Of a stretch of 64,000 bases of DNA, positions 1 to 46,056 are shown one piece after another. The notes under the pieces are model-generated. The model was not told the origin of the DNA. It searched no databases and saw only the letters and a list, made by a program, of their open reading frames with translations. The DNA lies in the IMG/VR virus record IMGVR_UViG_3300045988_152944; one strand, written 5' to 3'. A program made the translations under genes and the position numbers. Positions within the stretch are counted from its first letter, which is position 1. Each line of letters opens with the position of its first letter. Source of the DNA: a virus.

Positions 1-59
1 CCTATATTTCTTCTCAATTCATCGAAGACTTCTTGTTTTGTCGGGTTTACAACCTGCAT
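1..59 (-). CDS. 5' end of an unidentified gene running off the left edge (MQVVNPTKQEVFDELRRNI...)
   Basis: ATG at 59-57, GGAGGT at 69-64, open frame to position 1, consensus promoter just upstream (100-128). Confidence 0.35.
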   Translation of the reverse strand, partial: MQVVNPTKQEVFDELRRNI

Positions 60-99
60 ACGTACCTCCATCGATGAAATAGTCTTCATCTATGGTTTG

Positions 100-128
100 A
101 TTATAGTAAAAAAAAAGAAACTTGTCAA
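100..128 (-). promoter_or_regulatory. sigma70/sigmaA-type promoter, perfect consensus TTGACA-17 nt-TATAAT
   Basis: Minus strand reads TTGACA (128-123), 17-nt spacer, TATAAT (105-100); lies in the ORF-free gap upstream of the gene starting at 59. Confidence 0.5.
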
Positions 129-188
129 CTTGTAATGACAAATTTCTTTTAATTTTTTAAAATAAAATTATTCTTTTATTCAACAGTT

Positions 189-1088
189 CTAAAACACTTT
201 ACGAAATTTATATTTGTTAATATCGTATAAGCTATAGTGCCATTTTGCTGTTGAGGTGTTATCCCTTTGTAAAACACCTCCTTTCACCGCTAAAGTTCCG
301 TCTATTCGAATAACCACGTGGGTGGTATATAAAGCGACGGTGTTGTTTGAACTATCAAGGTTTGTGTTGGTGTAAACACTTTGAGCAATTTGGCCTGAGC
401 CATCCCAATGTACCAACGTTGTGCCATAAAACGCCAAAAGTTCATAAGTGTCCAAAACCGTAACTTCATAGGTCCCGGCTTCTGTCACCTTTGAATCGGC
501 ACCATTTGTGCCAGTAGTGATAGTCACCCACTCTCCCACCTGCGGTATATCTTCCTCTAGCGCAATTTCTTTTGTTACCGTTGTTTCCCCACTCTTCACC
601 TCCGCCTTGGGTCTGGGGTCTGAAGTTTTTATAATAGTGGGAGAGTTTGCAGAACCAAAATACTCATTTCTACCGTTAAATTCATACCAGTTTGTACCAT
701 TGGCGGACTGTGCCGTATCGCTCTGAAGCCCCTTGGCCATTGTGGCAGTTTTAGCCGTTGGTTCACCACTCTCAAATATGTCTGTAATTTTGTACTCACC
801 GATGTTGGTCGACACTGTTGTCGCTGTTGTCGCTTCTGTGGCCATAGGACATTCCTTAATTGTCCAGCCAACCGTTGACCCCGAGTCGGCAACCAACACT
901 TTGTTATCGTCATCCGCACCGCTTGGGGCAATTGATTTAGTGACAGTAAACAAATCTTTATCAGGTATGCCCGTTCCGACATATAAAGCCCCTTTTGTTG
1001 CCAAAGTGTCTTTGCTCTCCATTTTGCGTCTCATTTTACTGGCTTCTAAACCACTGTCAATAGTTACGCCATCGTTAATTGTCGCCAT
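189..1088 (-). CDS. hypothetical virion/tail-module protein (299 aa)
   Basis: Long ORF tightly packed with minus-strand neighbours; no recognisable motif. Confidence 0.6.
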   Translation of the reverse strand: MATINDGVTIDSGLEASKMRRKMESKDTLATKGALYVGTGIPDKDLFTVTKSIAPSGADDDNKVLVADSGSTVGWTIKECPMATEATTATTVSTNIGEYKITDIFESGEPTAKTATMAKGLQSDTAQSANGTNWYEFNGRNEYFGSANSPTIIKTSDPRPKAEVKSGETTVTKEIALEEDIPQVGEWVTITTGTNGADSKVTEAGTYEVTVLDTYELLAFYGTTLVHWDGSGQIAQSVYTNTNLDSSNNTVALYTTHVVIRIDGTLAVKGGVLQRDNTSTAKWHYSLYDINKYKFRKVF

Positions 1089-1091
1089 CTC

Positions 1092-1379
1092 TTATACCTC
1101 CGATAAATTATCGCTTTTATCTCCGACAGGTTTAGTCGAAGAGTTCTTTTTACGTTTGTCGATTGCCGCACTCGCGAGCAGCTCGTCGATAACCGCCAGT
1201 TCCTGCGCAATTTCGGTTTCGTTAATTTCCGAATACAAAACGCTAAGTTTGATGCAGGTTTCTTGTAGTTGTTTTATCTGTAGTTGCGCTTGGTCAAACC
1301 GCTCTTGTAAAACATCTTTTTGAGCCAACTGTTGTTGTAAGGTTTCTTTACGCTTATTTAAATATAAAGTACAGTCCAT
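1092..1379 (-). CDS. small coiled-coil protein (95 aa)
   Basis: ORF 3 nt from the next gene; heptad-like Q/L/E-rich sequence. Confidence 0.5.
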   Translation of the reverse strand: MDCTLYLNKRKETLQQQLAQKDVLQERFDQAQLQIKQLQETCIKLSVLYSEINETEIAQELAVIDELLASAAIDKRKKNSSTKPVGDKSDNLSEV

Positions 1380-1390
1380 AGATTCTCCTT

Positions 1391-1894
1391 TTATACATTA
1401 GTAAATTCTGCCAATTGTGGCTTAAGTTTGTTATATAAATACTCAAGAGTGAGTGGTTTACCGTCATATCTACCACAGTTGACAGTGATTCGGTCGAGAA
1501 TAACTATTGGATCAGAAAGAAACTCGTCTTTGTATCCAAGTTCTATCAACTCTTGTTTCACACTGTCGGAAATAGAAATTACCGCCGGTTGCTGAGCAGC
1601 AACAATAACCGCAAAGTTTTCTACTGTATAGAGGACGCGCTCAATTTCTGCAGTATATTCGGCCTCTTCCTCGGTAAGGGATTCGTTTTCCTCGTTCTCT
1701 GCGACCAGTGTTAAATATCGATTATTGACATTCGACATGAATATCGATAATTCCTCTTCTCTTGCTTTTTCGCGTTCACGTTCTTCTTGGCTAGGGTATC
1801 GAGCCACGGCGACAAAAACGAAGCCGTTATAGACATAACAATCATCTTCTAATACCTTATAATATTGACTTGTAATATTTTCGCTGACTGCCAT
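1391..1894 (-). CDS. hypothetical acidic protein (167 aa)
   Basis: ORF in the operon-like array; E-rich central segment. Confidence 0.55.
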   Translation of the reverse strand: MAVSENITSQYYKVLEDDCYVYNGFVFVAVARYPSQEEREREKAREEELSIFMSNVNNRYLTLVAENEENESLTEEEAEYTAEIERVLYTVENFAVIVAAQQPAVISISDSVKQELIELGYKDEFLSDPIVILDRITVNCGRYDGKPLTLEYLYNKLKPQLAEFTNV

Positions 1895-1905
1895 AGATTC
1901 ACCTC

Positions 1906-2913
1906 TTAATAATAGATATTCGCCAACCCTTCGCCACCGTGACTTCCTGGGTTAGCTTGACCAGCAGTAAACCCTGCGCCAGCACCGCCACTACCTTGAC
2001 TACCAGGAGAAGAAGGTTTCTTTCGACTATCCCCATTTGCACCATTAGCAAATGCAGATGCTCCCCCGCCTCCGCCATAGTTATTACCACCAGATGTGCC
2101 ACCCGATTTACCACCACGCACAAAGGTAGTACTTTCAGGTTTGTCATAAGTTAATGTCGTAGAAGTTGTTCCTCCACCCTCGCGTTCTTTTTCAGCCCCA
2201 TAGCCTCCATTGAGCCCAGTACCGCCGCTGTAAACGCCAGGAGTTCCTTGACCATCGTCAGTCTTTCTTCCCTTGCCACCGCCATTAGCCTGTAAAATAA
2301 TGCTATCATTAGCATCATATAAGTAAGAAGTTCCACCATTGCCACCGTCTTCTCTGTTTTCTCCACGAGGACCAGCGTCTCCGACCACTATTCTTATATA
2401 TGAATTTTCAGGGAGTGCTATACCCGTGAAAGTATAACCACCGCCCCCGCCACCGCCGGAACACCAGACGGCAGAACTACCTGCTCCACCGCCGCCGCCG
2501 CCTTGAATTTCCACAAAAATATATTTTGGGTTGTAATTCAGGCGTGTTCCTGTCGCGGAATTAGCACTTGTTGAAAGCCAGGTCTCCCCGTTTACACGGT
2601 TTACATAGTGAGTTCCTGGCGATAACGTTGCTAATGGTATTCCTATTGGTCTACAACCTTTAAGGGCAACGTCGATAGGTTGTTCGTTTATTTTATATTG
2701 AGCGCAAGTGTTCGAACCTCCAAGGTGTGTCCCTGCGCTTGTGGGAAAGGTTTTTCCGATGGCGGTTTTCAACGGTTGTCCGTTTTTCTTAAATTTGGCA
2801 GTAGAATCGGTAAATTTACTATCTGTCACGCCGTATTGTTCAGCAACCGAAGTCTCGAACGTTTCATACATTTCGTCGATGTCGATGTTGTTTATCTTGT
2901 AGTTAGTTGCCAT
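1906..2913 (-). CDS. glycine-rich-domain tail fibre/tip protein (335 aa)
   Basis: GGAGGT RBS upstream. Runs such as IQGGGGGGAGSSAVWCSGGGGGGGYTF, then repeated GG/NGG blocks to the C-terminus, as in phage glycine-rich fibre domains. Confidence 0.7.
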   Translation of the reverse strand: MATNYKINNIDIDEMYETFETSVAEQYGVTDSKFTDSTAKFKKNGQPLKTAIGKTFPTSAGTHLGGSNTCAQYKINEQPIDVALKGCRPIGIPLATLSPGTHYVNRVNGETWLSTSANSATGTRLNYNPKYIFVEIQGGGGGGAGSSAVWCSGGGGGGGYTFTGIALPENSYIRIVVGDAGPRGENREDGGNGGTSYLYDANDSIILQANGGGKGRKTDDGQGTPGVYSGGTGLNGGYGAEKEREGGGTTSTTLTYDKPESTTFVRGGKSGGTSGGNNYGGGGGASAFANGANGDSRKKPSSPGSQGSGGAGAGFTAGQANPGSHGGEGLANIYY

Positions 2914-2934
2914 TACAGTGTACCTCCAGTTGGG

Positions 2935-4062
2935 TTATTTCCCCAATTTTGCTTTATATATTTTTGACATTTCAGCTTCGAGCTTGGTGAGAGCACACCT
3001 TTGAAATGGCTTATTGATATCGCCGTACATATAATAACTATCCGCCGGACAAACACTGCAAACGCTCGAACATTCACAATCAAAACACTCTTTTTTGTAA
3101 TTACTAAAATTGCGACACTGCATTTGTTCTAAAAACGCAGTATTGGATATGCCCGTGTTGATATTACCAATAGGCACCTTCTTCGCCCCTTGGCTATCCT
3201 CACAGAATCTAAAGCAAATATAAATATCACCATTCCAATCAATTGCGAAGCCTGCTTTTGTCGCCAATCCACAAGTGCATATTTGCAAGTCTTTGGTATG
3301 TTCAACTTCTAATGCCGAAAGCGCCAATGGAGTGTTGGTAACTTTAATCCACTCAATTGTTTTTAACAGTTGCTGTCTATACTCTTTTAAGAACTTTTCA
3401 TCTGGGATGTAGTTGACATCAATACTGTGTTTAAGACGTGTGAAGCCTAGTGAAGCCAGATACTTACAACTCTCAAAAAAGTATTGAATGTTGTCAGGCG
3501 CGAATGTCAACTTTGTGGTTGTTTCGTAGCCAAAATCAACAAAATGTTGTTTAACGGCTTTTTCGACTTTGTCAAACACCGAATTGCCGTTTTTATCTCG
3601 TCGGCACTTGTCAAAACACTCGCGAGGTCCATCGATAGTTATCGCAAAGAGTAATTTATCTTTATATTTCTGAATGAAATCTTGGACATCTTTGTTGAAA
3701 TAAGTCGTGCCGTTAGTGTCAATAGCAATACAGCTACGAGACACAAGATCATAAAATTTGTGCTCGAGGCACTGGCGGAAAAAGTAATCACATATGTCAT
3801 TTACTATTGGCATATATAGAGTTACTTCTCCGCCCAGAAAAGTTAGCATCACGTTGTCAAAATCATCGCGCACCAACGCGTCGAAAGGTGTCGACTTGCC
3901 GAGTTTTCGGTCGATTAAACAGTCGATCACCTTTTTCGCGTCTTCGAGTTTAATGATTTGCTTTGCGTCACAATGTTGTTGGTAACAATAAGTACACCGC
4001 AAATTACAATTTGAAGTAATGTGAAATGTAATTGTTACCTGTTTATCTAATCGTTCGTCCAT
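2935..4062 (-). CDS. radical SAM enzyme with C-terminal SPASM/twitch-type Cys cluster (anSME/peptide-maturase-like)
   Basis: CNLRCTYCYQ (CxxxCxxC), FLGGEVTL (GGE motif), IDTNGT. C-terminal CTCG...GDIYIC, CFDCECSSVCSVC and a later QRC match the SPASM Cys pattern. Confidence 0.85.
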   Translation of the reverse strand: MDERLDKQVTITFHITSNCNLRCTYCYQQHCDAKQIIKLEDAKKVIDCLIDRKLGKSTPFDALVRDDFDNVMLTFLGGEVTLYMPIVNDICDYFFRQCLEHKFYDLVSRSCIAIDTNGTTYFNKDVQDFIQKYKDKLLFAITIDGPRECFDKCRRDKNGNSVFDKVEKAVKQHFVDFGYETTTKLTFAPDNIQYFFESCKYLASLGFTRLKHSIDVNYIPDEKFLKEYRQQLLKTIEWIKVTNTPLALSALEVEHTKDLQICTCGLATKAGFAIDWNGDIYICFRFCEDSQGAKKVPIGNINTGISNTAFLEQMQCRNFSNYKKECFDCECSSVCSVCPADSYYMYGDINKPFQRCALTKLEAEMSKIYKAKLGK

Positions 4063-4364
4063 ACCAACACTTCTCTTTTTATAATTAAGCCATCGTATTG
4101 TGGTTCGATGCGCACCATGTTGGGATAATAAAATTGCAATAAATAAAACAACTCTTCTGTTTTTTTACGATATGCCTCTAACGTATTTGTGTAAAATTTA
4201 AAAGCATCGTCGAGCGTTTGTTGAGTCACACCCAGTTGTTGTTTGGTTGCGTCTGTTAGTTTAAACAACCAATTGTAGTTATTGACACTATCGCTTAATT
4301 GTGTTGTTAGACGCAATAACTCATTATAGATATTATCTGTTAATACATAAGTAATCGACTGCAT
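4047..4364 (-). CDS. hypothetical helical protein (105 aa), possibly a fibre chaperone
   Basis: ORF between the 678-aa repeat protein and the rSAM gene, overlapping the rSAM start by 16 nt (translational coupling). Confidence 0.5.
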   Translation of the reverse strand: MQSITYVLTDNIYNELLRLTTQLSDSVNNYNWLFKLTDATKQQLGVTQQTLDDAFKFYTNTLEAYRKKTEELFYLLQFYYPNMVRIEPQYDGLIIKREVLVWTND

Positions 4365-4378
4365 AATGTTCTCCCAAA

Positions 4379-6415
4379 TTAAGACTCACACAGACCAGAA
4401 AACGTTGATGTCCCACCACATACAGCAATTTGCTTCAAATTTGTGCTACACCGAATATTACAAATGTTGTGACGTGCTGAGGTGTTACACGACGAACAAG
4501 ATACAGAGTGGCTCACATCAATGGTGAGTTGTCCATCCTCGGTCACCGTGTAGGATTGTCCAAAAATTCTATAACTGTCGAATCCGCTCGAATAACTTTG
4601 TGCCTTAACATACAATGTGTCACCATAATACCCAACTATTTGCTGGCCATCAGCGGACGTCGACGCTACATTTATCACATACGAGCTTTCACCACCGGAA
4701 GAATCGTAAACCGCACTCGGTTCTTGCCCTTTTGCATTACTCGAACGATAAATGATGACATTAATATTAGAATTGGGAGTCCCAGTTACTTTGATGGTAA
4801 TAGTATATGGTTTAACCCATTGACAAGTATCACCTTTGTAGAAATAATGGATGGGGATTGGGGGTTCGAGCTGATATTGAGCGTCATTGTAGGAATAGTA
4901 CATATTAGTGCCATCGGTCCAAACGTATGCACCCACAAACTCTGTGGCACCCTCCCATGTCTGCGCATTCCAGGCGGATGTGGCTTTGTGCAGTTGATAT
5001 ATACCAGAATAATATATACTAACCCCATCGGTCCACACATTAGAACCATAAAAATTAGTCAACCCACTCCACGTTTTCTGATTCCAAGTCGAAGTGGATT
5101 GATCCAACTGGTACTGATCCGTACCCAAGGAGTAATATATATTCTCACCATCGTTCCAAATGTGTCTTCCATACATCCCTGTAAAATTAAACCACGTTTT
5201 TTGAGTCCACGTAGACGTGCTGGTATTAAGCTGATACTGGTCTGTACCGCCCGAATAGTAAGTTATAGCCCCATTGGACCAGATGTGATCACCCGTAATT
5301 GATGTGAGCTCTCCGTTCCAGGTTTTAGGACTCCAAGTCGATGTTGCTTTGTCTAATTGATATTGGTGTTGATAAAACGAATAATAAATATCATCTCCCA
5401 CAGCCCAAATATACATCCCGGTAAATTCTGTTAATCCTGTCCAACTCTTTTTGTTCCAAATTAACGAGGTTTTGTCCAGTTGATATTGAGTCGTGTTATA
5501 TGAGTAATAAGTGTTATTTCCATCTGTCCAAATATGTTGTCCCACGTTAATTTTGAACTCTTCGTACCAAGTTGTTTCGTTCCAAGTAGAGGTGGTTTTG
5601 TCAAGTTGATATTGTTTGGTTACATACGAATAATAAAAATTGCCACCGCTCGTCCAGATAGTGGCGCCGGAAACTTTGGTGAACCCATTCCACGTTTTGG
5701 GATTCCAAGTCGAAGTAGATTTATCTAACTGGTACTGGTCGTTAGACGAAGAGTAATATATATTTTCTCCGTCGGTCCATACCCCGCTTCCGGAAACTTT
5801 GGTGAACCCATTCCATGTTTTGGTGCTCCAAGTAAACGTGGATTTATCCAATTGATAGTGAGTGGGAGCGTTGAGGCCATCATAAAAAGAATAATAAATA
5901 TTAGTGCCGTCGGTCCAAACATAAGCGCCATTAAAATTTGTTAGCCCATTCCAAGTTTTTGAAGTCCACGTTGAAGTGGCTTTATCCAATTGATATTGGG
6001 CTGTGCCTAATGAGTAATATATATTTCCACCATCGGTCCAAGGCCCATAGGCTCCATCCAAATTGGTAAATCCACTCCAGTTTTTTTTATTCCAAGTCGA
6101 TGTGGTTTTATCTAATTGATATTGTTCGGCGTCACTGGAATAATATATGTTTTCTCCATCGGTCCAAATCTTTGCGCCATAAAACTTTGTCAATCCTCCC
6201 CAAGTCTTTTTAACCCAAACAAACGTTGTTTGATCTAATTGATAATGTATTGTGTCCCAGGAATAGTAAACATTATTGCCGTCGGTCCATATATTTTCCC
6301 CGCTTATTCCTTCTCTATCCCATGGCGTTTTCCACATAATTGGTGTCACTGTACCAACCATATTATTATTCGCCTCAATGCTTTTTATTAAAACGTTATT
6401 TGCTTCTAATGCCAT
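4379..6415 (-). CDS. repeat-rich tail fibre/receptor-binding protein with 12 Trp-rich propeller-like repeats (678 aa)
   Basis: 12 copies of a ~41-46 aa unit (I/V)WTDGxNIYYS...QYQLDKxTSTWxxKTWxGLTxFxG, followed by a Cys-rich C-terminal domain. Confidence 0.8.
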   Translation of the reverse strand: MALEANNVLIKSIEANNNMVGTVTPIMWKTPWDREGISGENIWTDGNNVYYSWDTIHYQLDQTTFVWVKKTWGGLTKFYGAKIWTDGENIYYSSDAEQYQLDKTTSTWNKKNWSGFTNLDGAYGPWTDGGNIYYSLGTAQYQLDKATSTWTSKTWNGLTNFNGAYVWTDGTNIYYSFYDGLNAPTHYQLDKSTFTWSTKTWNGFTKVSGSGVWTDGENIYYSSSNDQYQLDKSTSTWNPKTWNGFTKVSGATIWTSGGNFYYSYVTKQYQLDKTTSTWNETTWYEEFKINVGQHIWTDGNNTYYSYNTTQYQLDKTSLIWNKKSWTGLTEFTGMYIWAVGDDIYYSFYQHQYQLDKATSTWSPKTWNGELTSITGDHIWSNGAITYYSGGTDQYQLNTSTSTWTQKTWFNFTGMYGRHIWNDGENIYYSLGTDQYQLDQSTSTWNQKTWSGLTNFYGSNVWTDGVSIYYSGIYQLHKATSAWNAQTWEGATEFVGAYVWTDGTNMYYSYNDAQYQLEPPIPIHYFYKGDTCQWVKPYTITIKVTGTPNSNINVIIYRSSNAKGQEPSAVYDSSGGESSYVINVASTSADGQQIVGYYGDTLYVKAQSYSSGFDSYRIFGQSYTVTEDGQLTIDVSHSVSCSSCNTSARHNICNIRCSTNLKQIAVCGGTSTFSGLCES
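4780..6300 (-). repeat. 12 tandem, diverged coding repeats (~125-140 bp) encoding propeller-blade-like units
   Basis: Periodic WTDG..YYS..YQLD..STW..KTW motif in the translation; DNA copies are diverged. Boundaries approximate. Confidence 0.75.
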
Positions 6416-6422
6416 AACTCAC

Positions 6423-6974
6423 CTATGTGTTTAAATATAATGTGTCGCCCTCAACGTACATCTTAATATGTCCCAACGTCGTTTGAGTGGCGACGGTGTT
6501 GATGTGGGCTGTTAGTTCCGATTTCAACGCGAAACTGCTTATATCGGGAATGTCGGGTTTGTTTAGTAAATCGTTGTAATCACCGGTCGTTGCAACTTGT
6601 GCCAAAGTAGGAATATCACTCTTAAATGCGAGTTCCTTAAAATTTACATTATCACTACTATATACAGGATTAGTCGCACTTCCTCTTAACCTTAATGGTA
6701 TGCTTTGGTGTCCTACGATCAAAACTCCACCACTGCGCCCAAACAGCGTTGAATTGCTTTCGTTCGTAATTTGACCATTCGACGTCAATATCATTTTAGA
6801 TGCTGCCGCTCCATCACCGCCTGTAAGCGTCAGTGGGCTTGTCAGCGTTCCGCCACTTAACCCATCTATTGAAGTGGGGATGTCGTTAACATCTGCCTTG
6901 GAGGTTAACCCCTGATCAACATATTGCTTAGTAGTAATGTCTAAACTCTCTGTGATCTCACTATAGTTTTTCAC
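6423..6974 (-). CDS. tail fibre-like protein (183 aa), GTG start
   Basis: AAGGAGGTGA RBS then GTG. Motifs TKQYVDQGL and LSGGTLTSPLTLTG are typical of phage fibre collar segments. Confidence 0.65.
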   Translation of the reverse strand: MKNYSEITESLDITTKQYVDQGLTSKADVNDIPTSIDGLSGGTLTSPLTLTGGDGAAASKMILTSNGQITNESNSTLFGRSGGVLIVGHQSIPLRLRGSATNPVYSSDNVNFKELAFKSDIPTLAQVATTGDYNDLLNKPDIPDISSFALKSELTAHINTVATQTTLGHIKMYVEGDTLYLNT

Positions 6975-7026
6975 GTGGTGTCACCTCCTTGGGCAATAAA
7001 TGTGTAATTTTATTTAATATATATTT

Positions 7027-7055
7027 ATTATACATAGTGTTAATTGATTTGTCAA
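7027..7055 (-). promoter_or_regulatory. sigma70/sigmaA-type promoter, perfect consensus TTGACA-17 nt-TATAAT
   Basis: Minus strand reads TTGACA (7055-7050), 17-nt spacer, TATAAT (7032-7027), in the 97-nt AT-rich gap upstream of the gene at 6974. Confidence 0.5.
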
Positions 7056-7071
7056 CTTAATGTGACAGAAA

Positions 7072-8565
7072 TTATCCAATGATTACCACTTTAAATGTTT
7101 GTGCGGTAGTGGGGGCGGTCGCAAACAACAATTTCACTTTGTTATTCATGGTGTAGGTGTCTACCATAACCAGCTCGTCGACCGTATCTGCTCCAACCGT
7201 TTGATTCTTGAGATAAACCTGAACGCTAACATCGGCACCCAGTGTATGAGCAACATCAAATGAAGTTTTGCTACCATCCCCCGTGATAGTTTGCACGACT
7301 TTTGTGGAATAATTTTCACTCGATGCAGCGGTTACTCGACCTTTTTCATTAACCGTCACAGTGTTATATGTGCCCGCCGTTACGCCAGTATTCGACAGTG
7401 TGACATTAATATCTTTGTTTGCACTTCCGTCGAAAGTAGTCGAACCAGTTGCATCTCCTGTGAGTGCAATTGTTCGCGCTGTCTTAAGTTTATCGGCCGT
7501 TCCCGCTTCGTTGACTCTGGTAATACTCACATCACCTATTTGACCATTGACACTCGTGACAGCATCGGTGTTATCAATTTTTTCCCACCTAGTTCCTGTC
7601 GAAATAATCCAGTCACCCGTCTCAAAACCAATCCCCGCAAACGTCCCGCTTGCTTGACAAATGAAATAAACACCTTCCATGTCTTGCCAACCATATGTGT
7701 TGGCTGCTGTGCTTGTTACAGAGTTTACAATCGCAATCGAAGTTGCTGTTATGTTCTTTTTTGTTTTTAAGCTATCGGAGGGTGAAATAGTGGTTGTAGT
7801 TGCAACCGTGGAAGCATTACCACCATACATTACTTGCCCAAGCAAATAATCAGGCAATTGGCTTGTAATAATCTTACTGTTGGCATCCAGTGACGCAACA
7901 CCACTCGCTTTACCTTTCCCCAAAGTTGCGGGAGTGATAACTTTTGTAGTGTCAGTACCATTGTTTACTTCGTCTTGAGTAGCCAACTGAACAACGCCTT
8001 TCACTGTTGTAGAAGCATTAACACCACTCAAAGTAAAAGAATTGCCTGGTGTCGTACTACCGCCTGTGATACCATTAGAGGTCTGAATTGTGACTTTTGC
8101 AGAATCTATCGCACTTTGTTTGGCCGCCGCAAGTTGTTTTGCATTGATAGCACGAGTAGTATCGGTACCCGCTGTGGCTTCAGCATCAGTAGCTAATTCA
8201 ATAACACCCTTGGCTGAATCTGTTGCATCAGGCAGAGAGATTTGATGGGTGTGACTATTTGCTGTAACGCCATTAGAACCGTAAGTGTTAGAGCCAGAGC
8301 CCGAAGCTGAAGGAGTACCCAAGCTAATAGTAACCGTGTCTGTTCCTGAACTGGTCAAACCATTGCCCGCTACAATGGATTTCACCGCTTCCGCTGTGAT
8401 ACTTACCCACGCGGTTCCATTGTGGTATCTATACCCATTATCTGTGGTGTTGTAATAAATTTGACCAGCTTTTCCCGACGAGGGATCGCTAGCCAAGTTT
8501 TGAATTACAGCATTTTCCAGTTGGTTTTGTTGTAAATTTAATCCGTTAAACCATTTTTGACTCAT
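7072..8565 (-). CDS. tail fibre protein (497 aa)
   Basis: N-terminus resembles the shared fibre N-domain (GQIYYNTTDNGYRYHNGTAWVSI). Repeated AxDAEATAGTDTT / ATQDEVNNGTDTTKVITP fibre motifs. Confidence 0.7.
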   Translation of the reverse strand: MSQKWFNGLNLQQNQLENAVIQNLASDPSSGKAGQIYYNTTDNGYRYHNGTAWVSITAEAVKSIVAGNGLTSSGTDTVTISLGTPSASGSGSNTYGSNGVTANSHTHQISLPDATDSAKGVIELATDAEATAGTDTTRAINAKQLAAAKQSAIDSAKVTIQTSNGITGGSTTPGNSFTLSGVNASTTVKGVVQLATQDEVNNGTDTTKVITPATLGKGKASGVASLDANSKIITSQLPDYLLGQVMYGGNASTVATTTTISPSDSLKTKKNITATSIAIVNSVTSTAANTYGWQDMEGVYFICQASGTFAGIGFETGDWIISTGTRWEKIDNTDAVTSVNGQIGDVSITRVNEAGTADKLKTARTIALTGDATGSTTFDGSANKDINVTLSNTGVTAGTYNTVTVNEKGRVTAASSENYSTKVVQTITGDGSKTSFDVAHTLGADVSVQVYLKNQTVGADTVDELVMVDTYTMNNKVKLLFATAPTTAQTFKVVIIG

Positions 8566-8579
8566 AATACTCTCCTTTT

Positions 8580-9152
8580 TTAGTTCAGATATGCTTTACC
8601 GCTGAAAGCTGCCGAAAAACTGATTGTTAATTTGTTTTTATCAATATAGTTGACTTCTGCTCCACCAACGATGTCCCCCGCGCTAGTAACCACGCTCACA
8701 CTAGGATATTTGTCCATATTGTGATTGATAGTCCAAGTTGCGGCTGGAGTGCTTTGCAAATGTGTGTATGTGGGGGCGGTTTGGGTGATTTGATAATAAT
8801 TGTTGACCACAGTCCCCTCAGAATTATTGTTGCCAACATTCTCATCGGCCACTTGTTTACTCAAGGGCTGATTATCGGCATACGACGGTCCTAATTTAGC
8901 AATAATGAACGCATTAGCTAAATTATTACCAATCTTATATAAAATGCCGTAATCACCCATCTGAAATTCATATTTTGAAGCGTTCACGACGTTTCTGACA
9001 CGAGTGTGCTCATCGGGTACGATTGTGACATCTAACGTGTAGTCCTCATTAACACCAACCACCTTACAATAGATAGTTTGATCAAGTGTGGACACTTTGT
9101 CGTCAATCGTCCCCTTTAGCACATCTAGAAAGTCATAACTTGTTCTGTCCAT
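8580..9152 (-). CDS. hypothetical tail/baseplate protein (190 aa)
   Basis: ORF in the tail module; no diagnostic motif. Confidence 0.55.
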   Translation of the reverse strand: MDRTSYDFLDVLKGTIDDKVSTLDQTIYCKVVGVNEDYTLDVTIVPDEHTRVRNVVNASKYEFQMGDYGILYKIGNNLANAFIIAKLGPSYADNQPLSKQVADENVGNNNSEGTVVNNYYQITQTAPTYTHLQSTPAATWTINHNMDKYPSVSVVTSAGDIVGGAEVNYIDKNKLTISFSAAFSGKAYLN

Positions 9153-9162
9153 AAATTACCCC

Positions 9163-10422
9163 CTAGATTCGTGATGCAAATGGTAAATTGCGTACGTTTG
9201 ATACTGTAATCGACATTGCGCCCGAATAGTCCAAACTACACGATACGCCCTGTAACAAAAACCTCTCGTGGTCTAATCCGAAGAACTCATCCGTGATTTC
9301 GATCAAATTATTAACCGACAGCAGAGGATTAAAACTAATATTTGTACTTACTGACGACTTGAGAATCAATTGTTTTCTCAGCTCATATTTTGCCCTGTCG
9401 TCAGCCAAACTTTGCGACGTAATGTTACTATCGTTGACAACCGGCCCAGTTCTGTAACCAATTCGTTGATAGCAAAGCGGTGAAGTTGGATCGTCATTTT
9501 CTGCAATTGCAGTATAAACTTTTCCATCCACTGTTGCGCCTATAACAACGACACGGTTGACAATGCTATTAACCTGTAATCCAAACGACAGCCCTGAAAA
9601 ATCTCCATTGCTGTCAGTTAATTCACAGATAACAGGTTTGTCTATATCCAGCGTGGTTTCTTGTGTCGGTAATATTGTTAAATTACCATTAGAATTATAA
9701 AACATTTCTGCTGACAACTGGTTAGCCAATTCCAGCAAAATACTACCGAGAGTCTCACCCGCAGATTTGCTAATTTTAGATTGAGTTTTCTTCCCTTTAA
9801 AACTTGAGTGATAAATAATGGGGGCCGGATCCAAAGGGTATCCATTACCCTTTGAACCGAGCAAAATCCCTCTAATTGTATCTTCAATGTCTGTTCCTGT
9901 AGGAATCTCATAACTGGTCTCAAGTGTACCAGGTTTCCCCTCGAAAATCGAGAACTTGTCACCAGTCTGTACGGCGACGGTTTGGGAGTCTGGATCTTCC
10001 GACGGTGTCAGTGACGAGGCCACATAAACACCGCTGCGTTTCCAGATAATGCTCCCGTCATCTTTTTCAATACCCAAGTCGAGGGCGAATTTAGTTTCCG
10101 CCCATAGGGTGTTGACCGAGGGGGTATATTTTTTATCCGTATTATAGAGTGAAAACGATAACGAACGACGTTGACCATTTTGATATTGTTCACTATAAGA
10201 CGAACCACTTAATAGAATATCTTCATCGGGAATTTGATAATCGACTGTTTCGTCGGGATGAAGAAGGAAAATTCTATATCGGGGGCGCAAAATCGGAGAG
10301 TTGATTAAATCGTTAAGCTCTGGGATACTCACATTAGAATCTAAGTAAGTATCCCCACTCATAACACTTAATGATAATACATCTCCGCTCGCTAAACCAA
10401 TAGTTTTTATAATTCGAGCCAT
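9163..10422 (-). CDS. tail-tip/baseplate hub-like protein (420 aa)
   Basis: Start moved to the internal ATG at 10422 (MARIIKTIG...), preceded by AGGAGGTG. Size and position fit a Tal/hub-like component; assignment is by context only. Confidence 0.5.
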   Translation of the reverse strand: MARIIKTIGLASGDVLSLSVMSGDTYLDSNVSIPELNDLINSPILRPRYRIFLLHPDETVDYQIPDEDILLSGSSYSEQYQNGQRRSLSFSLYNTDKKYTPSVNTLWAETKFALDLGIEKDDGSIIWKRSGVYVASSLTPSEDPDSQTVAVQTGDKFSIFEGKPGTLETSYEIPTGTDIEDTIRGILLGSKGNGYPLDPAPIIYHSSFKGKKTQSKISKSAGETLGSILLELANQLSAEMFYNSNGNLTILPTQETTLDIDKPVICELTDSNGDFSGLSFGLQVNSIVNRVVVIGATVDGKVYTAIAENDDPTSPLCYQRIGYRTGPVVNDSNITSQSLADDRAKYELRKQLILKSSVSTNISFNPLLSVNNLIEITDEFFGLDHERFLLQGVSCSLDYSGAMSITVSNVRNLPFASRI

Positions 10423-10453
10423 TTTGCACCTCCTAAAGAATTGAAGAAAAATT

Positions 10454-11506
10454 TTAATTGTCGCCCGTAATAATTGTATCATCCAGTGAGGCAATTTGTG
10501 TCCAACTGAAATTGATTTTGTCGGGCTGATAACCGATGTTGTCGGTTGGTTTGTTTGAACCGCTGGTGATTTGCACAATGAAGGCTTGCCCTTTGCGGTC
10601 TTTGATTAATTTTGGATTTTTCGACGCCACAACTTTACGCCATTCTTGCAACATCATAACCTTTTGGTTGGTAGTTAAATGAGATTTCCAAGGAAGTCTT
10701 TCCAGATAACCTTGTGCATACGGAATCTTCTCCTCCTCGGTTAAACATCCCAAATTGATAATTTCGCTGCCCAAATAACAACTTACAGAACTGGAAATGT
10801 TATTCTGGCGGCCGTGAGCGAACCTCGGGAACTGACCAAGCGTCTTTTGTTCTGTTTTAGAAATGTTCTGCGCTTGATCGCCTGATTCTACGTCATATTT
10901 GAACAACCAAACGTTCGTCGGGTTTGCTATGTAAGCTTTTTTGATAGCTGGGCTGGCCGTGTCTATTTGAACCGGCGTGAGCTCTGTTAAGCTCCAGCAA
11001 TCCCAATCTACTTTTATTGGTTGTGCCAGTTTTTGAATCGCAGTTGGATTACCTTCGGCAGAGTAAGCAATATATTGATATTCTCGCCCAGCGGTGACGT
11101 TGAAGTCGTACACCGTCGTTTGAGTAGTTCCAATCGCCACCGGTGAATAGTACGTAATACCATCGGCCACCTCTTTTTTGTAAATCGAATAAGAGTTACC
11201 TGGAGTACCAGGAGCTATTTTATATACCCCATAATCGGCTTCTGCATGGAAAGTCTCGTCTGTGATTATCAAATAGCCAATTTCGCCATTGTCGTTAAAC
11301 AACTTAGTATAACTTGTAGGCGTTTGCACGTTTGTGGGAAAAGTTTCGCCGTCCCACTGTTTTTGGTAAAAATACGACACCTTTTGTTTGGTGTCATAGC
11401 CAATGGTATAAACTCCTGTATCTGCATTTGGTATATCGTACGTCTCAGACTCTGCGGAGCGACCAGAGAACGAAATTTCACAATATCTGTTTAATCCTTC
11501 TTTCAT
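10454..11506 (-). CDS. hypothetical tail component (350 aa)
   Basis: ORF whose ATG overlaps the upstream stop (ATGA at 11503-11506). Confidence 0.55.
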   Translation of the reverse strand: MKEGLNRYCEISFSGRSAESETYDIPNADTGVYTIGYDTKQKVSYFYQKQWDGETFPTNVQTPTSYTKLFNDNGEIGYLIITDETFHAEADYGVYKIAPGTPGNSYSIYKKEVADGITYYSPVAIGTTQTTVYDFNVTAGREYQYIAYSAEGNPTAIQKLAQPIKVDWDCWSLTELTPVQIDTASPAIKKAYIANPTNVWLFKYDVESGDQAQNISKTEQKTLGQFPRFAHGRQNNISSSVSCYLGSEIINLGCLTEEEKIPYAQGYLERLPWKSHLTTNQKVMMLQEWRKVVASKNPKLIKDRKGQAFIVQITSGSNKPTDNIGYQPDKINFSWTQIASLDDTIITGDN

Positions 11507-13248
11507 GATTGCCCCTCCTGTTCTTGTGTCTGTGTAACCTTGAGCGTAATATACGTCGAACCGTCGGGCTTTTTAAGGTACCAAGTTCCGGAATTGCCGT
11601 CAGTGCCGTCCTCGTATGAGAGGGTACAAGTTTCCAATCCTGTATATAAATCGTCAATATTTTTCATATAACAATCAATCTTGAGTGTTTTATTAGTTAA
11701 TTGTGGATGACGTTTGACTTGTGCCATATGGGTATCAGTGTCTTTGTTCCAACCTTCTACCCAGAATTTGGTATCGTCCCATGTGGCGGGCTCTTGGGTT
11801 TGCACTACGCGAGGCCCCGCCGGAGTATCGATTTGAACCCGTTTTAGGTCGGTCCAGACGTTGTATTGCCCGCCTGTGTTGGTCGGCTTCTCCTTCTGCA
11901 AACAACATATTCCAATTTCTCTCTTTGCTTTGGTGTTAATTAAGTCGTTGATGTTGGTATAGCTTATGAGTTCCTCACCCGTGTTTGGGTCAAACGGATG
12001 GGAATAATTTAAATATTCAAGCTCTGCGTTGCCATCCTTGGTTAAATCGCCCGTTGTGTCATCAGCCCAAGATTTAGGTTGCAAATAAAACGCTTCCGTA
12101 GTTGTTGTGGCTAGTGGGAACAAAGTTGATCCAACGCAATCAAGCGTAGTGGAGCTGCTCTTAATCGTGCATTTGAGACGGTTGCGCAGGGGGTTAAAGG
12201 AAGCAACTGGTTTATAACAAAGGCGACCTCCGATAGGCAAGTACATGTCCGACGGATTATAACTACCGGCCCAATACCACAAACCCGCGTACCTCGTGTC
12301 GCTCCAAGCACCGCCAACAGCAAGAACGGAGCTACTGACGTCCGTGTAGTCGCAAAAATAAGTTGTGTTGCCACTTCTGGCGATTTCTGTTACGTATTGT
12401 ATAAGTGGGTTGCGTCCGAGCGGTTCAACCTTTTTAATCCAGCCGTCACCCACCGAGCAGTTACCTTGATAAACGTACGGTGCATCAATTTTGCCAGCGA
12501 TATAAGACACAGGGTCTGTGCAAACGTAAACTTTGTCAGAGGAGAAAGATATACCGTCGCACCAAGTAAAAATATTACCCCACAAATTCTCAATACCGCG
12601 ATACTTACACGCATGTTTGCCATCGGCATTGCTTTCTGGTGAACCGGACGGAGTGATAACGCTGTCTGTGGCACCCGTATTTGTTGCTGCCGAGTTGTTA
12701 TTCACATAGCCGTACATAATCGACTGGCAATTGGTGGTTTTCATTTCGATCAACCATAGCTCCTTAATAATCAAGTCAATTAAAAAATCGTATTGTTGAT
12801 AACCTGTGCCGTTTGCTTTACACGCCGTGCGGAAATTATCGCAAGTAATCTTTGTAAGTACGGTTTGCCCGCTCTTGGAATAAACGCGCTCCGACGACCC
12901 ACTTCCCTCATATTTGCCAACCATTACATAGTCAATCTCTTTTTCTCCGATTTTGAACAAAGTGTCAAAGCCCTCATGTTTCGTTCCTGACAATTGGTGC
13001 TTATAGGTGCCATCTACGTTTTTCGTGATTTTGCTGTAAAACTTTGGGATTTTAACAAAAACATTCCCAAATTTGTCTGTCACCTCTTCAATATCGCTCC
13101 AAGGATAGCAACTATCAAAATCGCTTGTGATTTCCGAGGTGCCAACTGTTATATTCAATCCCACTGCATCATCCACACGTATAAGCGCATTGGGATCTTG
13201 AGAACCAACAAGGTTTACGCCGTAAATTTTTTCTATATTTCCTTTCAT
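11503..13248 (-). CDS. tail protein with a central FGE-sulfatase/C-type-lectin-fold-like domain (581 aa)
   Basis: YRGIENLWGNIFTWCDG and GGAWSDTRYAGLWYWAGSYNPSDMYLPIGGRLCY recall the GNVWEW...GGxW...AG...IGxR pattern of FGE/CLec-fold receptor-binding domains. Confidence 0.6.
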   Translation of the reverse strand: MKGNIEKIYGVNLVGSQDPNALIRVDDAVGLNITVGTSEITSDFDSCYPWSDIEEVTDKFGNVFVKIPKFYSKITKNVDGTYKHQLSGTKHEGFDTLFKIGEKEIDYVMVGKYEGSGSSERVYSKSGQTVLTKITCDNFRTACKANGTGYQQYDFLIDLIIKELWLIEMKTTNCQSIMYGYVNNNSAATNTGATDSVITPSGSPESNADGKHACKYRGIENLWGNIFTWCDGISFSSDKVYVCTDPVSYIAGKIDAPYVYQGNCSVGDGWIKKVEPLGRNPLIQYVTEIARSGNTTYFCDYTDVSSSVLAVGGAWSDTRYAGLWYWAGSYNPSDMYLPIGGRLCYKPVASFNPLRNRLKCTIKSSSTTLDCVGSTLFPLATTTTEAFYLQPKSWADDTTGDLTKDGNAELEYLNYSHPFDPNTGEELISYTNINDLINTKAKREIGICCLQKEKPTNTGGQYNVWTDLKRVQIDTPAGPRVVQTQEPATWDDTKFWVEGWNKDTDTHMAQVKRHPQLTNKTLKIDCYMKNIDDLYTGLETCTLSYEDGTDGNSGTWYLKKPDGSTYITLKVTQTQEQEGQS

Positions 13249-16850: not shown

Positions 16851-17025
16851 TTACCGAGGAATCCTCGGCTGTTTTACCTTTTTTACTTTGAAATTTTTTG
16901 CACTCGGTTGGGCAAAATGAGATGCAATTCTTAATGCGGTCGCTTTCGGTTGCGGCACACAAATAAAAATTCCCATCGGGAATTAAAAATTTACATTTTT
17001 TATTAAATCGATTTGTGTCTGGCAT
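16822..17025 (-). CDS. small Cys-rich protein (67 aa)
   Basis: GGGAGG RBS upstream; Cys pattern CKF..LCA..NCISFCPTEC; 3' end overlaps the start of the 1201-aa gene by 29 nt. Confidence 0.4.
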   Translation of the reverse strand: MPDTNRFNKKCKFLIPDGNFYLCAATESDRIKNCISFCPTECKKFQSKKGKTAEDSSVIEGGPNGSL

Positions 17026-45873: not shown

Positions 45874-46056
45874 TCAGTCTTTTAACTGAAAATATTTGCA
45901 ATTTTCTTTGCAACCATTTGGCACCCAGCATTTCTCATTGTGACAAAATCGCTGAAAAGGACAAACCTCTCCTTTGAGTTTTTCACACACATATGTGTCT
46001 GCGCCACACCCTCTTGCAAATTGGCAAGGATGCAAGGTCCTTTTTGGAAATTCCAT
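45874..46056 (-). CDS. small Cys-rich protein (60 aa), translationally coupled to the upstream gene
   Basis: TAATG stop/start overlap at 46054-46058; 8 Cys in 60 aa. Confidence 0.45.
   Translation of the reverse strand: MEFPKRTLHPCQFARGCGADTYVCEKLKGEVCPFQRFCHNEKCWVPNGCKENCKYFQLKD

Follow-up and report, generated by a model that had tools for sequence, protein, structure and literature searches.

The window analyzed here, a stretch of 64,000 nucleotides of viral DNA (IMG/VR virus record IMGVR_UViG_3300045988_152944), was found to encode a radical SAM (rSAM)/SPASM enzyme inside a tail module, in a cassette with a small accessory protein and a large tail-module protein that ends in six closely placed Cys (Table 1). 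Judged from gene sequence and order, there is about an even chance that this cassette carries out RiPP-like, oxygen-independent thioether stapling of the C-terminal tail of the tail protein.

The ORF at 2935-4062(-) encodes a member of the radical SAM superfamily, with the cluster motif C19-x3-C23-x2-C26. It belongs to the SPASM subgroup, its C-terminal Cys cluster (C264-x13-G-x4-C283, C326-x2-C329-x5-C335-x2-C338, and C356) providing the seven-Cys domain for two auxiliary [4Fe-4S] clusters. The three motif Cys and the seven auxiliary Cys were invariant in a 27-sequence alignment reaching down to 24% identity, and the last SPASM pair was spaced Cx2C instead of the canonical Cx3C. The CxxxCxxC motif was preceded by only 18 residues; because it begins at residue 19, the enzyme lacks an N-terminal RRE domain. 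Strong full-length matches to many rSAM models of NCBIfam were obtained. The score against PF04055 (E = 1.7e-6, 28.8 bits) was 0.7 bits under the gathering score of 29.5, and that against the SPASM model TIGR04085 (31.2 bits) was above the cutoff of 27. An earlier, sequence-only reading of this DNA had described the gene product as a canonical rSAM/SPASM protein of the peptide- or protein-maturase class, and the CxxxCxxC motif, the seven auxiliary Cys, and HMM matches well beyond chance all bore this out.

The best NCBIfam family was TIGR04115, the maturases of "CXXX-repeat targets" (E = 1e-48), but membership was rejected, as the score of 166.7 bits was under the curated cutoff of 350. The next matches were PapB (NF047865; E = 1e-37, 129.8 bits vs. 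a cutoff of 340) and QhpD (TIGR03906; 2e-23, 83 bits vs. 453). The SCIFF maturase model (TIGR03974) gave 1e-20 (73.8 bits vs. 425), anSME (TIGR03942) gave 6e-16 (58.5 bits vs. 349), and a match to prokaryotic viperin (1e-10) covered the N-terminal 80 residues only. The best relative in the PDB was the thioether synthase CteB (5wgg, 2e-13); the alignment began at CteB residue 98, past the RRE of CteB, and all SPASM Cys of the two enzymes were aligned. Matches to anSME structures (4k36-4k39) spanned only the N-terminal half of the window enzyme. Against TIGR04115, the clade of the window enzyme scored 167-225 bits (192-225 for its clade mates) and formed a separate branch; the bona fide members P0050, P0013, and P0028 scored 625, 431, and 390 bits, respectively. 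The enzyme of locus L013 reached 349.8 bits against the cutoff of 350 and that of L014 reached 390, and the partner protein of the former passed TIGR04114, the model of the known rSAM target (38.5 bits, cutoff 20). By these scores, the window enzyme falls in a divergent clade, sister to the TIGR04115 maturases, within a lineage of Cys-peptide maturases in which the CXXX-repeat enzymes are closest, then PapB, then QhpD and SCIFF/CteB.

The TIGR04115/TIGR04114 pair, a radical SAM peptide maturase with its Cys-rich repeat-containing target, has been defined in silico only, and no characterized reaction of TIGR04115 was found in the full-text literature. The window enzyme shares with TIGR04115 a full SPASM domain and no RRE, and both systems share a genetic logic in which the gene for a Cys-rich protein adjoins the enzyme gene. 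In contrast to the CXXX array of TIGR04114, the window candidate is a modular 678-aa tail protein whose very C-terminal end carries six irregularly spaced Cys (C2C8C3C9C9C), and the accessory protein family of the window differs from that of TIGR04115 loci. A TIGR04114-type neighbor with Cys at every fourth residue was accordingly rejected for the window, as no model was matched. PapB, the freyrasin maturase, is likewise a compact rSAM/SPASM enzyme that acts on multiple Cys in short spaced motifs, and it is described as forming Cys-Asp thioethers (PMC10739248). The PapB substrate is a short leader-core peptide with CX3D, whereas the window candidate is a large protein without CX3D motifs; identity with this ranthipeptide maturase was rejected by the score and by a tail without the CxxxD/E motif. 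The substrate of CteB, SCIFF ("six cysteines in forty-five"), resembles the window candidate in having six Cys in a C-terminal stretch of ~40 residues. Identity with the SCIFF system was rejected by the score, by the lack of the fused RRE that CteB carries at its N-terminus, and by a tail that matched no precursor model; the active-site shell of CteB has been described (PMC10288494). Further, the window enzyme and anSME have the rSAM plus SPASM fold in common, and anSME modifies a protein that is folded. Identity with anSME was rejected by the score and by the operon, which had no sulfatase; a C/S-x-P-x-R motif was likewise lacking among the neighbors of the enzyme. The formylglycine option of the sequence-only reading was dropped with it, anSME being the weakest of the HMM family matches. 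The best functional analogy for the stapling of a virion protein is the QhpD/QhpC system, in which an rSAM enzyme crosslinks the gamma subunit of quinohemoprotein amine dehydrogenase. The Cys thioethers formed by QhpD are intraprotein ones, and the crosslinked polypeptide is retained as a structural subunit. In substrate, role in the cell, and accessory genes, this system bears no relation to that of the window.

Table 1. Features of the putative maturation cassette and its flanks in the 64,000-nucleotide window.
Feature	Position	Strand	Description
Terminator-like hairpin	113..150	(-)	15-bp stem and T-run, after gene 189-1088; consensus match only
Gly_rich_2 protein	1906..2913	(-)	335 aa; PF21722, phrog_863; same-operon neighbor, not a conserved rSAM partner
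Radical SAM/SPASM maturase	2935..4062	(-)	375 aa; no N-terminal RRE domain; sister clade of TIGR04115 by sequence
Accessory protein	4047..4364	(-)	105 aa; stop overlaps rSAM start by 16 nt; candidate substrate adaptor/chaperone
Tail-module protein, candidate substrate	4379..6415	(-)	678 aa, repeats; two genes upstream of rSAM
Six-Cys C-terminal tail, predicted modification site	4382..4498	(-)	Residues 640-678: CSSCNTSARHNICNIRCSTNLKQIAVCGGTSTFSGLCES
Conserved C-terminal beta-sandwich domain	4499..4858	(-)	About residues 520-639, directly before the Cys tail
Sigma-70-like promoter match	7027..7055	(-)	Perfect (12/12), in the upstream gap of gene 6423-6974; consensus match only

The 678-aa protein consisted of a conserved N-terminus, repeats in variable number, the conserved beta-sandwich, and the Cys tail. 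The repeats (~45 aa, 'WTDG.NIYYS..QYQLDK.TSTW') were also present in a 1,201-aa tail-module ORF (13245-16850). The protein matched no PHROG or Pfam family, and we infer that it is part of the virion from the position of its gene between fibre genes and from its modular variation. An AF2 model of the C-terminal fragment had strands over fragment residues 4-119, with pLDDT of about 50-85 by block and mostly >70 outside one loop. The beta-sandwich was 82-87% identical in relatives whose repeats varied, and its motif GYYGDTLYVK was common to the 37-41% loci. Six of the seven Cys of the protein were located in the last 39 residues (Fisher p = 1.7e-7), and in homologs down to 46% identity all six tail Cys were invariant, against 3 of 33 non-Cys positions. 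The tail was predicted to be unstructured (pLDDT 33-44) after the folded domain, in an AF2 model built on only four sequences. No match of the tail to known NCBIfam precursor models (SCIFF, CXXX, and others) was obtained.

The 105-aa protein was modeled by AF2 with a pLDDT of 95.1 as a beta-alpha3-beta2 fold (beta-alpha-alpha-alpha-beta-beta order). It had no Pfam or NCBIfam match, and a Foldseek search of the model against PDB and BFVD returned nothing with E < 0.001, the BFVD matches being sub-threshold ones to uncharacterized gut-phage proteins. An RRE, that is, a PqqD-like winged helix with a three-stranded sheet followed by three helices, was rejected for this protein, since the order of strands and helices differed and no PqqD-type match was found. 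Homologs were encoded at the equivalent position in the seven closest relatives (L001-L007) and in L008, L009, L011, and L264, and the protein was missing from one clade member (L265). Homology to the ~100-aa proteins at this position in typical CXXX loci was not detectable by hmmsearch or hhalign (probability <1%); as far as sequence comparison goes, the equivalence is one of position only. In addition, an apparent fusion of a Cys-rich segment with an accessory-like C-terminal half in L266 was not confirmed by the family HMMs. The coupling of a small upstream protein to the enzyme, previously read from the sequence, held, the two genes overlapping by 16 nt, and the small protein was conserved together with the cassette.

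The setting in a tail module, also proposed earlier, was confirmed by matches around the cassette: 7072-8565 matched tail-fibre PHROGs, 9163-10578 and 11503-13248 matched tail proteins, and 23737-28008 encoded the tape measure. The enzyme gene sits at the receptor-binding end of this module. The sigma-70-like match may mark the start of the unit carrying the cassette, promoter-like matches in total being not above chance, and the terminator-like hairpin may mark its end.

The window phage was of the gut type. A megablast search of window positions 1-9200 against 50,697 phage records returned nothing, and the only relatives given by tblastn were at <30% identity among uncultured gut phages, with Erwinia jumbo phages at about 23%. 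For a bona fide TIGR04115-type phage enzyme, no cultured phage exceeded 36%. Relatives of the window enzyme were present on at least 486 IMG/VR contigs, and its cellular relatives were all from Clostridia, Bacteroidales, Margulisiibacteriota, and similar groups, in keeping with an anaerobic setting. Loci L096-L100 are among those from Clostridia, L098 being from Desnuesiella massiliensis (NZ_LN879456).

Across these relatives, the order upstream of the enzyme was conserved: a protein with a terminal or internal Cys-rich stretch, usually a ~100-aa accessory gene, and then the rSAM gene. In L001-L007, reshuffling had affected the fibre genes as well as the repeats of the 678-aa protein, whose length ranged over 178-678 aa, and the C-terminal domain with its tail, the 105-aa gene, and the rSAM gene were all intact. 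In L008, L009, L011, L264, L265, L266, and L267, the enzyme was 34-41% identical to that of the window and the rest of the neighborhood differed; a protein with a Cys-rich stretch was encoded directly upstream in each, the stretch being N-terminal in L266 and C-terminal in the other six. In 28 of 28 dereplicated viral clusters, the enzyme gene had a same-strand ORF no more than 1.5 kb away with six or more Cys per 40 aa, vs. 1 of 136 background ORFs, and a Cys-rich segment adjoined the enzyme in nearly all cellular loci with a delimitable enzyme ORF. The only conserved neighbor of the enzyme was a protein with a Cys-rich, Ser/Thr/Gly/Ala-rich segment. Five of the phage contexts had Pfam annotation, and in each of them the cassette was part of a tail module. 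A substrate-side search of IMG/VR returned exactly the same seven contigs as the enzyme-side search. The window-type substrate appears to be rare, because a metagenome scan for further members of the window clade yielded nothing above 34% identity and an exhaustive search without profiles, for which the C-terminal domain was the query, recovered only three 50%-identity clusters. The sequence-only reading had proposed a virion protein as the substrate; synteny retains a tail-module protein in this role, with a thioether as the likeliest product, and moves the conserved partnership to the 678-aa protein upstream.

The partner favored in that reading was the Gly-rich protein on the other side of the enzyme, with Cys151 in AVWCSGGGGGGG as a possible target, or a distant Cys-rich mini-protein. 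The details of the gene pair were correct: the two genes are adjacent in one operon, the 335-aa ORF starts 21 nt past the rSAM stop, and a lone Cys does lie in the G-run of the product (22% Gly). The protein is also a bona fide member of the tail-associated Gly_rich_2 family (PF21722; 45.7 bits, cutoff 24.3). Against its role as the substrate, homologs occurred only in the seven phages whose enzymes are 93-94% identical and in none of ~160 other loci, so that the pair was confined to near-identical relatives, which for this pair is an outcome that the sequence-only reading had itself named as refuting; unrelated genes stood downstream of the enzyme in L009, L011, L013, and L264. A tblastn search with the Gly-rich protein against phages gave no match, for which the low-complexity filter was probably responsible. 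Moreover, the partners of enzymes in this lineage are Cys-rich segments, whereas the Gly-rich protein holds only three Cys, scattered along its length. The two mini-proteins are encoded 13 kb (16822-17025) and 42 kb (45874-46056) from the enzyme and belong to no conserved cassette. Modification of any of these proteins is very unlikely. Least probable of all, to the point of being hardly credible, is that the enzyme is a metabolic or defence moron unrelated to the virion, for instance a sulfatase maturase akin to anSME or an enzyme akin to viperin. The weak HMM tails toward anSME and viperin would suit such a role, but they were far under the cutoffs and under the peptide-maturase matches, no sulfatase was present, and the gene was embedded and translationally coupled in a late tail operon with which it was conserved.

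Two other explanations concern the six-Cys tail. At the fibre tip, its Cys may bind a structural metal (Zn or Fe-S) or form a disulfide knot instead of being an rSAM substrate; the enzyme would then act on another protein, of host or phage, or have only an indirect effect on the tail. Invariant Cys with variable spacers also mark metal sites and disulfide knots, and some bacterial CXXX proteins (L015) carry a twin-arginine-like signal, which often marks exported cofactor-bearing proteins. We consider this explanation unlikely, since it accounts neither for the Cys-rich segment beside the enzyme throughout the viral clusters and nearly all delimitable cellular loci nor for the one-to-one co-occurrence of enzyme and tail; in addition, cytoplasmic assembly in anaerobes disfavors disulfides, and the nearest characterized enzymes all form Cys thioethers. 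Alternatively, the 678-aa protein could be a giant precursor whose Cys tail, once modified, is cut from the protein and leaves the virion as a phage-encoded RiPP (a toxin, signal, or anti-competitor peptide). Its architecture resembles that of leader-core RiPP precursors with a C-terminal core, and Peptidase_S74 autoprocessing domains were encoded in neighboring genes of L008 and L011. This seems quite unlikely, however, as no gene for a protease, an exporter, or immunity was present in the operon, the "leader" would span 140-1300 aa and shows the modular diversifying pattern of receptor-binding proteins, and the cassette was inside tail modules in every Pfam-annotated phage context.

Under the preferred reading, thioether stapling of the tail, the cassette would be a RiPP-style maturation system whose three genes are co-transcribed late with the tail-fibre genes. 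The chemistry is assigned by family resemblance: residues of the unstructured tail (39 residues) would lose a hydrogen atom to the rSAM enzyme, and the six Cys sulfurs would be joined to backbone or side-chain carbons in thioethers of the sactionine or ranthionine type. Such staples would turn the flexible tail into a compact covalent knot where the beta-sandwich ends. The 105-aa protein most likely holds or presents the tail and would stand in for an RRE despite its different fold, as suggested by its translational coupling to the enzyme and its co-variation with substrate architecture. The purpose, more speculatively, may be to provide redox-independent, protease-resistant crosslinks for a distal tail or receptor-binding protein; disulfides would be unreliable in phages of strict anaerobes. 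The broader proposal, that phages of strict anaerobes routinely carry an rSAM crosslinker of their own by which a tail or receptor-binding protein is stapled with thioethers, is put forward tentatively, at somewhat less than an even chance. RiPP chemistry would then serve as a step of virion assembly and take the place of disulfides in a redox-proof form, with the RRE replaced by a small adaptor of new fold. The window would represent the system at its minimum, with six Cys on a modular, RBP-like protein. No description of a phage rSAM enzyme acting on a tail protein was found in the full-text literature.

To our knowledge, there is no earlier case of an rSAM RiPP-type crosslink as a maturation step of a phage structural protein. 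If true, the present system would be the first such case and would join RiPP enzymology with phage assembly and host recognition. The window system would be a variant of a family so far defined only in silico, and a role would be given to TIGR04114/TIGR04115 and phrog_6085, which are abundant in gut viromes and anaerobe genomes. It would also provide compact, leader-independent stapling enzymes for large proteins, and a route to the covalent stabilization of virions that are built in a reducing cytoplasm and released into the anoxic, protease-rich gut.

The 375-aa radical SAM/SPASM maturase encoded in the tail module (hereafter rSAM) bore out its assignment from sequence alone as a CxxxCxxC enzyme with an auxiliary Cys cluster: it contained C19-x3-C23-x2-C26 and a seven-Cys C-terminal domain, and ten Cys were invariant in 27 homologues with identity down to 24%. 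The SPASM model TIGR04085 was passed (31.2 bits; cutoff, 27), and PF04055 was matched with E=1.7e-6, but a fraction of a bit below its gathering score. Among NCBIfam maturase models, the best match was TIGR04115, the "CXXX-repeat target" family (1e-48, 167 bits), followed by the PapB ranthipeptide (1e-37), QhpD (2e-23), nif11-type (8e-21), and SCIFF (1e-20) models; the anSME model, whose class had been proposed, ranked lowest of the six (only 6e-16), and rSAM reached none of these family cutoffs. TIGR04115 scores were 625 and 431 bits for bacterial members, 390 and 349.8 bits (cutoff, 350) for the members at phage loci L014 and L013, and 167-225 bits for the window's enzyme clade; judged by this gradient, the window enzyme is a divergent sister clade outside the family proper. 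The closest solved structure was the thioether synthase CteB, with all SPASM Cys matched. The alignment began at CteB residue 98, past its peptide-recognition domain, and only 18 residues preceded the cluster motif in rSAM, which therefore has no fused RiPP recognition element (RRE).

All genes in 1-9200 were on the minus strand and tightly packed, and since the tail proteins and tape measure were located upstream, this segment is the distal end of the tail module. The intergenic gaps of the rSAM cassette were, in order, 12 nt, -16 nt (an overlap of the 105-aa gene with the start of rSAM), and 21 nt. Perfect promoter-like matches and a terminator-like hairpin flanked an eight-gene unit (6974-189); promoter-like matches overall were not more numerous than in shuffles. 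The tail module also encoded a 476-aa protein strongly matching Hoc-like head decoration (phrog_10993, 1e-99), flanked by the genes for the 1201-aa repeat protein and for a protein of 1668 aa.

Positions of genes and sequence signals in the window
Feature	Position	Strand	Remark
497-aa tail fibre	7072-8565	-	matches to many tail-fibre PHROGs
Sigma-70-like hexamer pair	7055-7027	-	perfect 12/12 TTGACA-17-TATAAT; consensus match only
183-aa protein	6423-6974	-	second in transcription order, after the tail fibre
678-aa repeat protein	4379-6415	-	third
105-aa protein	4047-4364	-	fourth
rSAM, 375 aa	2935-4062	-	fifth
Glycine-rich protein, 335 aa	1906-2913	-	sixth; Pfam Gly_rich_2
Three further small/medium genes	down to 189	-	3' of the glycine-rich gene
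Terminator-like hairpin	150-113	-	15-bp stem and T-run; consensus match only
Second sigma-70-like hexamer pair	100-128	-	perfect 12/12 TTGACA-17-TATAAT; consensus match only
1201-aa repeat ORF	13245-16850	-	
Mini-protein, 67 aa	16822-17025	-	
Hoc-like protein, 476 aa	17108-18538	-	
Tape measure	23737-28008		
Mini-protein, 60 aa	45874-46056	-	8 Cys

The 678-aa protein ended in CSSCNTSARHNICNIRCSTNLKQIAVCGGTSTFSGLCES, and its last 39 residues held six of its seven Cys (Fisher p=1.7e-7). In ten distinct homologues, with identity down to 46%, all six tail Cys were invariant, vs. 3 of the 33 other tail positions. Searching with the C-terminal domain retrieved the seven IMG/VR contigs already obtained with the enzyme and no other IMG/VR contig; when 1.84 billion representatives were searched exhaustively, only three true clusters emerged, each with the six Cys. 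An AlphaFold model of the C-terminal domain, based on four sequences, contained a beta-sandwich, with pLDDT mostly >70, followed by the tail at pLDDT 33-44, which suggests that the tail is unstructured. A ~45-aa repeat (W[TS]DG.N[IV]YYS...QYQLDK.TSTW..K.W.G), matching no Pfam or PHROG family, was shared with the 1201-aa ORF; close relatives had between 0 and about 11 copies, and the region looks like a propeller-type, diversifying receptor-binding module.

The sequence-only reading had named the glycine-rich protein as the rSAM substrate. This protein is indeed a Gly_rich_2 member with a Cys in its glycine run (AVWCSGGGGGGG), encoded 21 nt after rSAM in a run of tail-fibre genes. The seven contigs with a 93-94% identical enzyme (L001-L007) showed heavy reshuffling of the fibre genes and of the repeats in the 678-aa homologue (178, 388, 425, 428, 429, or 612 aa), with 82-95% identity retained over its last ~155 residues, the 105-aa gene, rSAM, and the genes downstream; by themselves, these contigs do not separate the candidate partners. 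The homologues there of both fibre genes (183 aa and 497 aa in the window) kept their N- and C-terminal ~35-190 residues and had swapped middles among relatives otherwise 93-99% identical, with gene sizes of 179-510 aa and 638-663 aa; immediately upstream of the rSAM cassette there thus seems to be a hot spot at which cassettes are exchanged. In these contigs a conserved ORF of 93 aa (L001, 11974-12255; equivalents in L002-L007), with 5-6 Cys per 40 aa and a CCWLGGAGCQC... motif, was found 2.8-3.6 kb downstream of rSAM; its counterpart in the window would lie just past position 1.

At loci with a 34-41% identical enzyme, the downstream gene was unrelated in L009, L011, and L264, and a Cys-rich, Ser/Thr/Gly/Ala-rich stretch was encoded immediately upstream in every case: L008 (...TCLTCSAVGTCSSSSSCTSCSAVSTCGKSSSGCTSCSAVSTCG...), L009 (...VSCNAACSTSASSSCKTAICSRSIGEGSV), L011 (...TCGTCSATTTCGSSSSCSTCSAVTTCG...), L264 (...GCTSCSATTTCGSSSQCRTCSAYSTCG...), L265 (...GCGSCSTSTKTCTSACTSNARTSKCNAVTCSKSIGSGGW), L266, and L267, which was truncated. 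The stretch was a C-terminal tail in all of them except L266, where it was N-terminal. There, the Cys-rich segment belonged to a 195-aa protein (3436-4023), directly upstream of a 35%-identical rSAM, whose C-terminal half was helical with a beta-hairpin; it may be a substrate-accessory fusion, but accessory-family HMMs did not confirm this. A homologue of the glycine-rich protein occurred in none of ~160 other loci with an enzyme relative. The two Cys-rich mini-proteins, proposed as alternative substrates, resembled small Cys-knuckle proteins and were distant, outside any conserved rSAM neighbourhood. It is thus very unlikely that either the glycine-rich protein or a mini-protein is the substrate; the general idea that rSAM modifies a virion or tail protein was supported, but not with the substrate first named.

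With a profile of the enzyme, relatives were retrieved both from IMG/VR (at least 486) and from prokaryotic genomes sampled at one per species (at least 403). A Cys-rich partner ORF (≥100 aa, ≥6 Cys per 40 residues, within 1.5 kb, same strand) was present in 28/28 viral clusters dereplicated at 90%, vs. 1/136 other ORFs at the same loci. Viral partners typically packed 11-14 Cys into 40 residues, arranged as CXXX repeats of the CTGSCTGSC type; the L013 partner passed the NCBIfam target model TIGR04114, and several matched phrog_6085, a family of unknown function. Five phage contexts had Pfam annotation, and in each of them tail genes (Peptidase_S74, PhageMin_Tail, Phage_fiber_2, Mtd_N, LRR_5) were among the neighbours. 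With 401 member sequences in its cluster, the window-type enzyme represents a lineage that is common in metagenomes; of the cultured phages in the GenBank set, none carried a close family member. Cellular relatives (≤34% identity) likewise adjoined CXXX proteins and, among the matches listed, all came from anaerobes (Clostridia, Bacteroidales, Margulisiibacteriota, and a deltaproteobacterium). Bacterial TIGR04115 loci (L015, about 5400-5780; Bacteroidales L105-L175) encoded short CXXX proteins; the one in L015, overlooked by gene calling, combined CN.ACSNN repeats with a lipobox and a twin-arginine-like signal. Directly 3' of the rSAM gene, these loci encoded a second protein with a Cys motif (APICR.CDAYQCKRC; ~317 aa), and none was found in the phage loci inspected in detail (window, L008-L014, L264-L267). 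Some relatives belonged to stop-codon-recoded phages: the 1315-aa Cys-tail ORF of L265 (3-3950) has in-frame stops under table 11, and Phage Phass-1 (L176, OQ749652.1), filed in a "code 15 clade" with suppressor tRNAs nearby, has its rSAM split over two annotated CDS.

A metal or disulfide knot in the Cys tail, with no connection to the enzyme, is unlikely, as this would leave the 28/28 association and the one-to-one co-occurrence of enzyme and tail unexplained. Cleavage and release of the tail as a RiPP is slightly less likely still, given that no protease, exporter, or immunity gene was found and that the "leader" behaves as a modular receptor-binding protein. It is extremely improbable that rSAM is a metabolic or defence moron: this reading had very weak HMM support, and the operon encloses the gene.

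Homologues of the 105-aa protein occurred at the same position in L001-L007, L008, L009, L011, and L264; the gene was absent from clade member L265. Its AlphaFold model (pLDDT 95.1) comprised a strand, a long, a short, and a long helix, and a beta-hairpin. In Foldseek searches, no PDB structure matched significantly (best E=0.47), and the BFVD matches, to uncharacterised gut-phage proteins, all stayed below threshold, the best being A0A8S5NLY9 and A0A8S5LNB7 (~90 aa, TM 0.62-0.74, E about 0.05-0.1) from uncultured human-virome phages; by that test, the protein is not an RRE. Typical CXXX loci had a ~100-120-aa gene at the equivalent position (44 distinct sequences, one family), with no detectable homology to the 105-aa family. 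At those loci the candidate substrate consisted of repeats preceded by a conserved N-terminal domain of ~110 aa; that of the window had a beta-sandwich and short tail. Because the accessory family changes in step with substrate architecture, we infer that the 105-aa protein acts as an adaptor or chaperone specific to its substrate.

NCBIfam already pairs TIGR04115-type enzymes with Cys-rich targets, so in silico the principle is not new; our literature search found no experimental characterisation of such a pair and no account of it in phages. The window adds a separate clade of the enzyme, a large modular protein of the tail module whose C-terminal tail is a minimal one with six Cys, a new predicted accessory fold, and evidence that the family is widespread in viral tail modules.

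The analysis thus showed the class of the enzyme, its lack of an RRE, a conserved set of three genes, and the invariance of the Cys; the mechanism that follows is proposed. In the QhpD/QhpC precedent, the crosslinked polypeptide stays a structural subunit. The nearest characterised relatives, PapB, QhpD, and CteB, all form Cys thioethers, according to family descriptions and the literature. In the phage, rSAM would reductively cleave SAM and take a hydrogen atom from tail residues presented by the accessory protein, auxiliary clusters would help to join Cys sulfur to carbon, and several thioether rings would form within the last 39 residues of the 678-aa protein. Speculatively, these would staple a distal tail protein in a way that resists proteases and does not depend on redox state, in a phage that would assemble in, and exit into, anoxic reducing conditions, which is consistent with the exclusively anaerobic distribution.
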